A stretch of 64,000 bases of DNA, taken from Hydrolagus affinis. Lineage: Eukaryota. The notes beneath the pieces were generated by a model, which ran no database searches, was not told the origin of the DNA, and worked only from the letters and a program-made list of their open reading frames with translations. The position numbers and the translations under genes are program-made. The stretch is taken from assembly GCA_012026655.1 (NCBI GenBank), contig JAAILG010001210.1, positions 1 through 64,000 on the forward strand, read 5' to 3'. Numbering within the stretch: position 1 is the first letter of the stretch; the number at the start of each line of letters is the position of its first letter. Of the stretch, positions 2,832 through 39,880 are shown piece after piece.

Positions 2832-2889
2832 ATGGGAGCTGAGCAGAGCACGTATACTGATCATAAACATCCCGAATCACATGTCTCGG
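2832..2889 (+). CDS. BORCS5: BORCS5 coding exon 1 (MGAEQSTYTDHKHPESHVS; exon starts at 2796 with 36 nt of 5'UTR)
   Basis: Acceptor tttctgcag|2796, ATG in good context (aacATGg), MGxxxS N-myristoylation motif like human MGSEQS, donor G|GTAAGT at 2890. 58 nt, phase 1. Confidence 0.9.
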
Positions 2890-3674: not shown

Positions 3675-3877
3675 TTCTGTGCGGTGTAAAGCAAGTGCTG
3701 TCAGTAGCGACATTAATAATAATAATCTTTGCATTTGATATAACATCTCTTCACATCATCGAGACATTCCAAAGCACTTCAGAACAGCCACAATTGCATT
3801 TACATTGGGTCTTTCACATCTGGAGGATGTCCCAAGGTGTTGATACCACAGATTGACTGTATTTTGAACATGGTCAG

Positions 3878-4261
3878 TAGTGTCTGGCGATATATCGATA
3901 TATCGGTTATATCGGTATAATTTTTCATATTGATATGCCGATATTGGAAATTCAAATACATCGGTATATCGAAAAATTCGGTATATAAAAAAAATCAGTA
4001 TATCGCAAATATCGGTATATCGTGTCCGGCGATATATCGGTTATATCGGTATAAAGCGAACTTTTTCAACTTTCCTTGTCGCCAGCATTGCAATCCTGGA
4101 CCTAGAGCACGGAATGCGCGTGCATATTGGAATGCATGCGCACCTCCGAATGCGCACGCATGCGCAGTATAAAAAACCTGGCGATATCGATAGATCGGTA
4201 TATATTGATATGAGCCCACTGATATATCGATATCGGAAAATTTCCATATCGACGGACCCTA
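3878..4261 (+). mobile_element. Non-autonomous hAT transposon (MITE), copy 1
   Basis: Imperfect TIRs TAGTGTCTGGCGATA / TATCGACGGACCCTA. Exact 8-bp TSD ATGGTCAG (3870-3877, 4262-4269). Dense subterminal ATATCG/CGATAT repeats. Confidence 0.92.
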
Positions 4262-4376
4262 ATGGTCAGTAAGAGCACTTCAAAATGATCTTCCCCTGTA
4301 TAATCCCTGCATAATCCGTTGATTCATTAAAATGGCTGCAGCACCGTGGGAGTCATTATATTCTTGTTTTAACCAG

Positions 4377-4523
4377 CTTCACCATCTCCAGCGAAGCAGA
4401 GGGCCAAGATGGATGACATCATAGTTGTTGCCACAGGGACCCAGCAGCCTGCACGAACAACGTGGAATGATCCCGATGTAATTAAGCTGCAGGAAATTCC
4501 CACCTTCCAACCTCTGCTTAAAG
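4377..4523 (+). CDS. BORCS5: BORCS5 coding exon 2 ([49 protein letters not shown])
   Basis: Acceptor ttttaaccag|, donor AAAG|GTAATG. 147 nt, phase 1-1. Matches recalled BORCS5 sequence SPAKHRAKMDDIVVV...[20 protein letters not shown]. Confidence 0.96.
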
Positions 4524-4662
4524 GTAATGTGCTTTTTGTTTCCTTCCAGGATACATTTCAAAACTGGTGGCATTTCGCTTTTAAAGTAACACATTTAAAA
4601 GCCCACAGTTTTATATAAACACACACACACGCATATGTATATATATGCACATGTGTATATAT

Positions 4663-5131
4663 TAGGGTCCGTCGATATGGAAATTTTCCAATATCGATAT
4701 ATCGGTGGGCTCATATCGATATATACCGATGTATCGATATCACCGGGTTTTTATCTTGTGCGCATGCGAGGAAATGGTGATTAGTGGGAGGAGGGGGAGG
4801 AGGGGGAATGACCGGTCTGCGCATGTCTGATTGTGTTTGGTGGTGGGGGAAGGGAAGAAGGGGGATGCGCGCATTCAGATATGCATGCTCTACATCCAGG
4901 AAGTTTGTGATGCAGGCGACAAGGTTAGTTAAATGCTATCTATGGTTTTTTGTTAGTTTAAAGGGCATTTGAACCTTTGGTTGTATATCTTGTGTATGCT
5001 GTAACGTGGCATTTGTTGACGATATACTGATATTTTGTGGATATACCGATATTTTTTTCATACCGAATTTTTCGATATACCGATATTTTCAAATTTCCGA
5101 TATCGGTATATCGATATATCGCTGGACACTA
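4663..5131 (-). mobile_element. Non-autonomous hAT transposon (MITE), copy 2, inverted relative to copy 1
   Basis: Ends TAGGGTCCGTCGATA ... TATCGCTGGACACTA. 8-bp TSD GTATATAT (4655-4662, 5132-5139). Same termini as copy 1 but a different interior. Confidence 0.92.
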
Positions 5132-5681
5132 GTATATATATATTTTTAAATGCTTTTATTTTTAAATAAAGTAAAAACAAATGTTGTCACTCAATTCAAA
5201 GCAGTTTATGAAACATTCTTGTGCTGTGTTTGTCTACCCAAAAAATGGTTATTACACTTCACAGTAAAATGCTGGCCCTAAGGCTGGCTGGCTTAATGCT
5301 TACTGAGAAGCTTGATTCACCCATCTGTTTTCTTAGCTAGGGAACAGTGCGTATTATGGGGGAGGGGGAAAAAAAAATGTGTCCTGTAGACTTAAGATAT
5401 TAAGCCCTAACTGCCTTTAATTAACACACTTAATATATTTTGAGATTATCAAGTTCTTTTGAGAAACACCCAAGTGATTTAATTATTTGTACTCTTTTTC
5501 AATGGTTCACTTCCTTTTCTTAAATCTGGATTTTAACAGAATCTTACTGGCTGCGTTGAAGTATACATGTTCAGTTTTCTGTATGAATATTCCGTAAAGT
5601 GAATTGACTATGTTTTGTCCCACAAATTATACAGTCAATTTACTTTACATTGTATTCTGTGAAGTGCTTTGAGATATCTCG

Positions 5682-17394: not shown

Positions 17395-17552
17395 GGCTAT
17401 TAAGTGGTCAGACCACCCCCAGCACAAGTAAATTGGAGAAACTGGACTCCCAGCAAGTATTAAAGGTCTGTCTACGCTACCAGGATCACCTACATCAATG
17501 TGCGGAGGCGGTCTCTTTTGATCAGAACGCTCTTGTAAAGCGAATCAAAGAG
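17395..17552 (+). CDS. BORCS5: BORCS5 coding exon 3 ([53 protein letters not shown])
   Basis: Acceptor tattttacag|, donor GAG|GTAAGG. 158 nt, phase 1-0. Near-identical to the recalled vertebrate BORCS5 core. Confidence 0.97.
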
Positions 17553-39646: not shown

Positions 39647-39880
39647 ATGGATCTCTCTGTGGAAGCCTTGTTCACCATTATGCAGGAGCGGCAAAAGAGA
39701 TACGCCAAGTATGCTGAGCAAATCCAGAAGGTTAATGAGATGTCTGCTATCCTCCGACGCATACAGATGGGCATAGATCAAACTATTCCGTTAATGCAGA
39801 AACTCAATAGCCTACTGCCAGAGAATGATCGACTTGAACACTTCAGCATGAAGCCTGACAAAGATTCAAAGCATCAGTAG
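39647..39880 (+). CDS. BORCS5: BORCS5 last coding exon ([45 protein letters not shown]...[12 protein letters not shown])
   Basis: Acceptor ttttcccttgtag|, phase 0, TAG stop at 39878-39880. Spliced CDS is 58+147+158+234=597 nt, 198 aa. Confidence 0.97.

Follow-up and report, generated by a model that had tools for sequence, protein, structure and literature searches.

The window, a 64,000-nt stretch of Hydrolagus affinis genomic DNA (contig JAAILG010001210.1), contains the coding exons of BORCS5:

2832..2889, + strand: first coding exon, coding part (58 nt; opens with ATG, MGAEQ..., and ends in phase 1)
4377..4523, + strand: second coding exon, hereafter exon 2 (147 nt; AG/GT splice sites, phase 1-1, residues 20–68)
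17395..17552, + strand: third coding exon (158 nt), in which PF10158 begins
39647..39880, + strand: last coding exon, including the stop codon

The match of the exon at 17395–17552 to PF10158 (E 8.5e-20) identifies the gene as BORCS5, for which the genome assembly (G000) holds one locus only. Among proteins, the top match is BORCS5 of Callorhinchus milii (P0135), identical at 19/19, 48/48, 50/52 and 74/77 residues across exons 1 to 4, respectively. An acceptor-like AG at 2794–2795, before the first coding exon, indicates that a non-coding upstream exon may exist. Loss of BORCS5 causes severe phenotypes in human and zebrafish, as described in the accessible text of PMC12083638.

Exon 2 is strongly conserved, with 37–39 of 48 residues identical to tetrapod and lungfish BORCS5. 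The initial annotation had described it as 147 nt long, phase 1-1 and a multiple of three, all of which was confirmed. It had also pointed to an ATG at 4409 within a stop-free, in-frame loop; this holds in the sequence as a property of a conserved exon. Frame 2 is open, the ATG lies in frame, and the exon repeated end to end stays stop-free because it is symmetric and coding, as any symmetric coding exon would. The Met is conserved across vertebrates, with the motif AKM[DN]DI present in 88 of the 136 BORCS5 proteins compared; the stop-free loop and the Met are thus no argument for a translated circle. Separately, 11 of 120 BORCS5 records start at the exon-2 Met (P0010–P0013, P0037, P0043 and others), several of them 166 aa long, and such forms would be without the N-terminal MG. 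The pyrimidine tract at the exon 2 acceptor is short; a simple branch-point pattern returns just a weak site, 54 nt upstream.

Two small transposable elements, each with its own pair of TSDs, closely bracket exon 2:

3878..4261, + strand: MITE 1 (384 bp), of a short subfamily (about 360–400 bp), with its 5′ end (TAGTGTC) outward and its 3′ end toward the exon
4663..5131, − strand: MITE 2 (469 bp), of a long subfamily (about 470–530 bp), with its 3′ end toward the exon
3870..3877, no strand: TSD of MITE 1, left copy (ATGGTCAG)
4262..4269, no strand: TSD of MITE 1, right copy (ATGGTCAG)
4655..4662, no strand: TSD of MITE 2, left copy (GTATATAT)
5132..5139, no strand: TSD of MITE 2, right copy (GTATATAT)
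4172..4263 (+) and 4661..4752 (−): inner pairing arms (92 nt, 6 mismatches, 93% complementary)
3927..4023 (+) and 5019..5117 (−): outer pairing arms (84% over 99 nt)

The description of two hAT MITEs in opposite orientation, with different 8-bp TSDs and lying 115 and 139 nt from the exon, checks out at every coordinate: both TSDs are perfect, they differ from one another, MITE 1 ends 115 nt before exon 2 and MITE 2 begins 139 nt after it. The strong complementarity claimed for the inner ~90 nt and the outer ends was likewise borne out, at the values given above, and five of the six inner-arm mismatches are read as CpG decay. Element orientation was set by two transposase-bearing relatives (L081 and L084), according to which both window copies aim their 3′ ends at the exon. 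MITE 1 repeats its 5′ terminal sequence internally at 4022–4054, a feature that also marks the short subfamily in general and the 1.2-kb derivatives.

The label "young", given earlier to both elements, stands only in a relative sense. Measured against the majority sequence of its own subfamily, the divergence of each copy is 1.8% and 2.3%, respectively, at non-CpG sites and 10% and 12.5% at CpG sites. Judged by these sequence differences, the insertions are fairly recent but not fresh. Genomic A>G hyper-editing was not seen, with 0 and 1 A>G changes in the window copies and no more than 5 in any copy among 40. The non-CpG changes of the long-subfamily copies L001–L030 are strand-asymmetric (A>G 52 versus T>C 30; C>T 66 versus G>A 30), and base composition is a possible cause.

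Turning to the family to which these elements belong, its 18-nt terminus occurs exactly 6,390 times in the 1.11-Gb genome, corresponding to at least 6,390 copies. Of 19 copies located by their interior, 9 retain this terminus intact, so the family probably numbers about 13,000 copies. TSDs were surveyed at 48 other loci, of which 7 were dropped because both ends could not be located; among the remaining 41 copies, 38 are flanked by 8-bp TSDs that differ from each other at no more than one position. The duplications are biased toward nTnnnnAn, with T at position 2 in 30/42 and A at position 7 in 31/42 (window copies counted twice each). The TIRs are short and imperfect, the two termini agreeing at 13 of their first 16 bases. 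Non-autonomous elements of the Ac family of hAT transposons, such as those of hobo and Hermes, are alike in the 8-bp TSD with the consensus nTnnnnAn, short imperfect TIRs, subterminal repeats and dissimilar ends, as described in the accessible text of PMC8961557 and PMC10368747.

Three loci connect the family to a hAT transposase. In deletion derivatives of about 1.2 kb, fragments of the PF05699 hAT dimerisation domain lie between the MITE's ends at L081:851-2051 (1,201 bp, perfect TSD) and L084:1226-2419 (1,194 bp, TSD with one mismatch), and likewise at L060, where the 5′ end was not located. In contrast to hobo and Hermes, no intact autonomous partner was found in the 30 of 72 PF05699 loci examined, where transposase sequence between family ends consists of short C-terminal fragments only. 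By their sequence, the window elements are non-autonomous hAT elements (MITEs): small, non-coding and of high copy number. Two unusual copies were also noted. At L087:602-914 (G000:C578), a 313-bp fold-back copy carries the family 3′ end at both termini, is without a TSD (TTGCACTG / CCCAATAC) and looks like a collapsed remnant of two inverted copies; at L059:2169-2678, one family copy is apparently nested in, or abuts, another.

The claim of a DNA-transposon-built stem around the exon is supported in silico. Folding of 3878–5131 yields 248 inter-element pairs, including an inner stem of 89 pairs with a mean probability of 0.98, and the joint fold gains 171 kcal/mol relative to the parts folded separately. 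The MITEs are accordingly predicted to form a strong RNA stem that loops out exon 2. The predicted loop of ~400 nt holds the branch region, the acceptor and the donor, each 42–47% unpaired.

How exceptional this arrangement is can be gauged from the family's other copies. In a count of pairs with 3′ ends facing, which covered four gap ranges up to 416 nt, the genome contains none with a gap of 100–160 nt, two at 200–260 nt, one at 300–360 nt and three at 386–416 nt, the last including the window pair. Across these ranges, 214 nt in total, random placement would give 3.6 pairs, and five besides the window pair are present (P=0.30; n=5, a small number); in all five there is family sequence on both sides. 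Corrected for mutated termini, the pair density is about 70 per kb of gap. A typical vertebrate has ~200,000 coding exons, and on that assumption this geometry alone is expected to bracket ~0.6 exons within 500 nt and ~4 within 1 kb. The BORCS5 locus is thus at the tight end of chance expectation, not outside it, and with insertions in the thousands, chance is the likely origin of the arrangement. A further pair with 3′ ends facing, met outside the count at L073/L089 (L089:1729-2601; G000:C4666), has a gap of 393 nt, and one of its partners is a transposase-fragment derivative.

Other inverted repeats are present in the gene. Those crossing exon 3 (19 HSPs) and a further five HSPs crossing exon 2 lie 4–29 kb apart, and of all inverted pairs that span an exon of BORCS5, the two MITEs lie nearest to each other. 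Intron 1 also contains a 27-nt inverted pair (3648–3674/3715–3741; 96%, 40 nt apart), which we take to resemble two facing retroposon tails. Elsewhere in the window, four additional inverted pairs of at least 60 nt with gaps <2 kb occur at 1284–1350/1511–1575, 8276–8354/9329–9408, 9329–9389/10821–10881 and 18293–18355/19311–19373.

RNA evidence came from three stranded poly(A) raw-read runs (X2, X3 and X4) of one sample of "organism B", possibly a relative, which may or may not carry both MITEs; inclusion of exon 2 was judged from read depth, and the joints within reads were dominated by ones derived from repeats. Depth at position 4414 in exon 2 was 4, 39 and 3 in the three runs, compared with about 2, 32 and 1.4 in a unique bin of the upstream coding exon (X2 and X4 by arithmetic), so that exon 2 equalled or exceeded the upstream exon in 3/3 runs. 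Depth was near zero in repeat-free intron bins, and all first mates on exon 2 were on the minus strand, consistent with sense transcription. Exon 2 is thus included in messages. Poly(A) libraries drop off toward the 5′ end, which lowers first-exon depth, and moderate skipping therefore stays compatible with these reads.

Exon-3 depth (X3 42, X4 23, X2 3) was discarded as a measure of inclusion because a repeat lies within its bin (X1 depth 8,206). Taken literally, the X4 values of 23 there and 3 on exon 2 would point to skipping or to 3′ bias, in a bin confounded by that repeat. The exon 2 RNA reads share one synonymous difference with the DNA run X1. A contig of X1 ends at about 4236 as judged from read-end distances, 25 nt inside MITE 1, which suggests that the organism behind X1 also has MITE 1. 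As regards RNA editing, A>G differences are about as frequent as T>C differences over the whole stretch (623–640 versus 637–642), and the reads that cover the MITEs derive from many family copies.

Taking these observations together, we consider it most probable (roughly 0.7) that this is a chance pair of MITEs forming a real duplex in the pre-mRNA, perhaps edited, with at most a small effect on splicing. Copies of two hAT MITE subfamilies inserted separately and now flank BORCS5 exon 2 in inverted orientation, an arrangement likely due to chance. With the outer arms, a predicted duplex of ~90 bp would form as soon as MITE 2 has been transcribed and would close a loop of ~400 nt containing both splice sites. 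This duplex may be subject to A-to-I editing and may somewhat increase in-frame skipping of exon 2, which mammals can already skip. A 147-nt circle would be yielded little or not at all. Exon 2 is likely still present in most messages, and hence the MITE pair is likely a tolerated passenger.

A feature that sits uneasily with a passenger is the stem itself, which is predicted to be very strong and far tighter than the Alu pair of TBXT. In hominoid TBXT, as in BORCS5, two independent inverted transposable elements (AluY and AluSx1) flank an in-frame skippable exon and are predicted to form a stem-loop; the accessible text of PMC10901737 shows both the exon skipping and its dependence on the two Alus. 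The window elements differ from those of TBXT in being DNA-transposon MITEs and in enclosing a predicted loop of ~400 nt rather than 1,448 bp (PMC10901737, same text). By this precedent, the MITE stem could act as a switch that substantially raises, in this lineage, an in-frame BORCS5 without residues 20–68; the product would be 149 aa long, with the MG at its N terminus and the helical portion of PF10158 both retained. The 89-pair inner stem at a mean probability of 0.98 and the short loop speak for such a switch, as do the short pyrimidine tract, the weak branch-point site 54 nt upstream and the skippability of the exon in mammals.

The corresponding protein is already on record. An exact join of exon 1 to exon 3 occurs in 12 of the 136 BORCS5 proteins compared, all mammalian by source name, and these include the curated human RefSeq isoform 3 (NP_001317285.1; P0121; 148 aa), which is exactly the predicted exon 1–exon 3 product. 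The exon-skip isoform is therefore not new, and since it exists in mammals, skippability does not need these MITEs. No skip-type protein from a cartilaginous fish was present among the 136 proteins compared, the search having given the best 120 of 235 matches. This distribution argues against a switch, as do the depth of exon 2 in all three RNA runs, the strong conservation of the exon, splice signals that are about 42–47% unpaired within the loop, and an arrangement that occurs at chance frequency. We therefore regard a substantial MITE-driven switch as unlikely.

Much less probable still is that the stem promotes back-splicing into a 147-nt circRNA on which translation, begun at the ATG at 4409, runs continuously round the circle. 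A close model is exon 2 of Drosophila laccase2, flanked by inverted DNAREP1_DM repeats, which is likewise a non-Alu pair very near its exon with ~100 nt of pairing (PMC4617980, in its accessible text). Together with the stop-free loop and in-frame ATG, this geometry would favour a circle. The same text, however, gives the laccase2 exon as 490 nt long, with a demonstrated circle, whereas the BORCS5 exon is 147 nt. It further describes efficient circularisation between the laccase2 introns only for exons of at least 300 nt, and exons of at most 400 nt circularised poorly with ZKSCAN1 (PMC4201285, as far as accessible). At 147 nt, exon 2 falls below the ~300-nt length of efficient circularisation in published minigenes. 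The loop follows from exon symmetry and the Met is conserved, and neither is a sign of design.

Links between MITEs and circRNAs do exist outside animals. In poplar, hAT and PIF/Harbinger MITEs flank circRNAs, and hAT-superfamily MITEs are tied to circRNA output, as reviewed in PMC12595863 (accessible text); that is a plant system with transgenic support, whereas the BORCS5 pair is known from sequence. For rice, the accessible part of PMC7843763 gives a general MITE–circRNA association only, and the case in the corresponding part of PMC2533698 is one of two Alus inside one intron. The involvement of non-SINE transposons in exon looping is accordingly already in print (laccase2 and the poplar MITEs), and the mechanism is known. 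The window elements have the features of hAT MITEs, and the exon length associated with repeat-driven circRNAs is not among the features of the locus. In a literature mostly outside subscription journals and without supplements, we found neither this locus nor any hAT MITE pair of a vertebrate described, and within the same limits no account of BORCS5 exon-2 skipping.

Finally, the proximity of the two copies had been taken as a hint of local hopping, or of a composite element that captured the exon. Proximity is the one point in favour, along with family copies that at other loci occasionally adjoin or nest in one another (L025, L059 and L088). MITE 1 and MITE 2 differ in interior and length and thus belong to different subfamilies, and the closest matches of each are distant copies (93% and 94%), on which grounds local hopping is rejected. 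A composite is unsupported: the outer flanks share no TSD (ATGGTCAG versus GTATATAT), and the pair therefore did not insert as a single unit. Each copy has its 5′ end on the outside, and for Hermes a 5′–5′ outer-end arrangement is described as unable to support transposition (PMC10368747, accessible text). In addition, the exon is a single native copy in the genome, and the sole symmetric-ended copy examined (L087, with two 3′ ends outward) is without a TSD. The sequence comparison supports independent insertion of the two window MITEs, and a hop of one of them or a composite able to carry the exon is hardly credible.

If a chance pair with little effect on splicing is indeed what BORCS5 carries, the arrangement matters little, being one of perhaps a few exons bracketed by chance by an abundant MITE family. 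It is improbable, in our estimation, that the MITE stem serves chimaeras as a splice switch of the TBXT type, arriving convergently at the human isoform 3; the ~13,000-copy family would then supply pairs across the genome for examining the roles of stem strength and loop size. Should skipping prove MITE-dependent, the mechanism known from TBXT would extend from Alu to a cut-and-paste family in cartilaginous fish, and the locus would offer a natural test of the function of BORCS5 residues 20–68.
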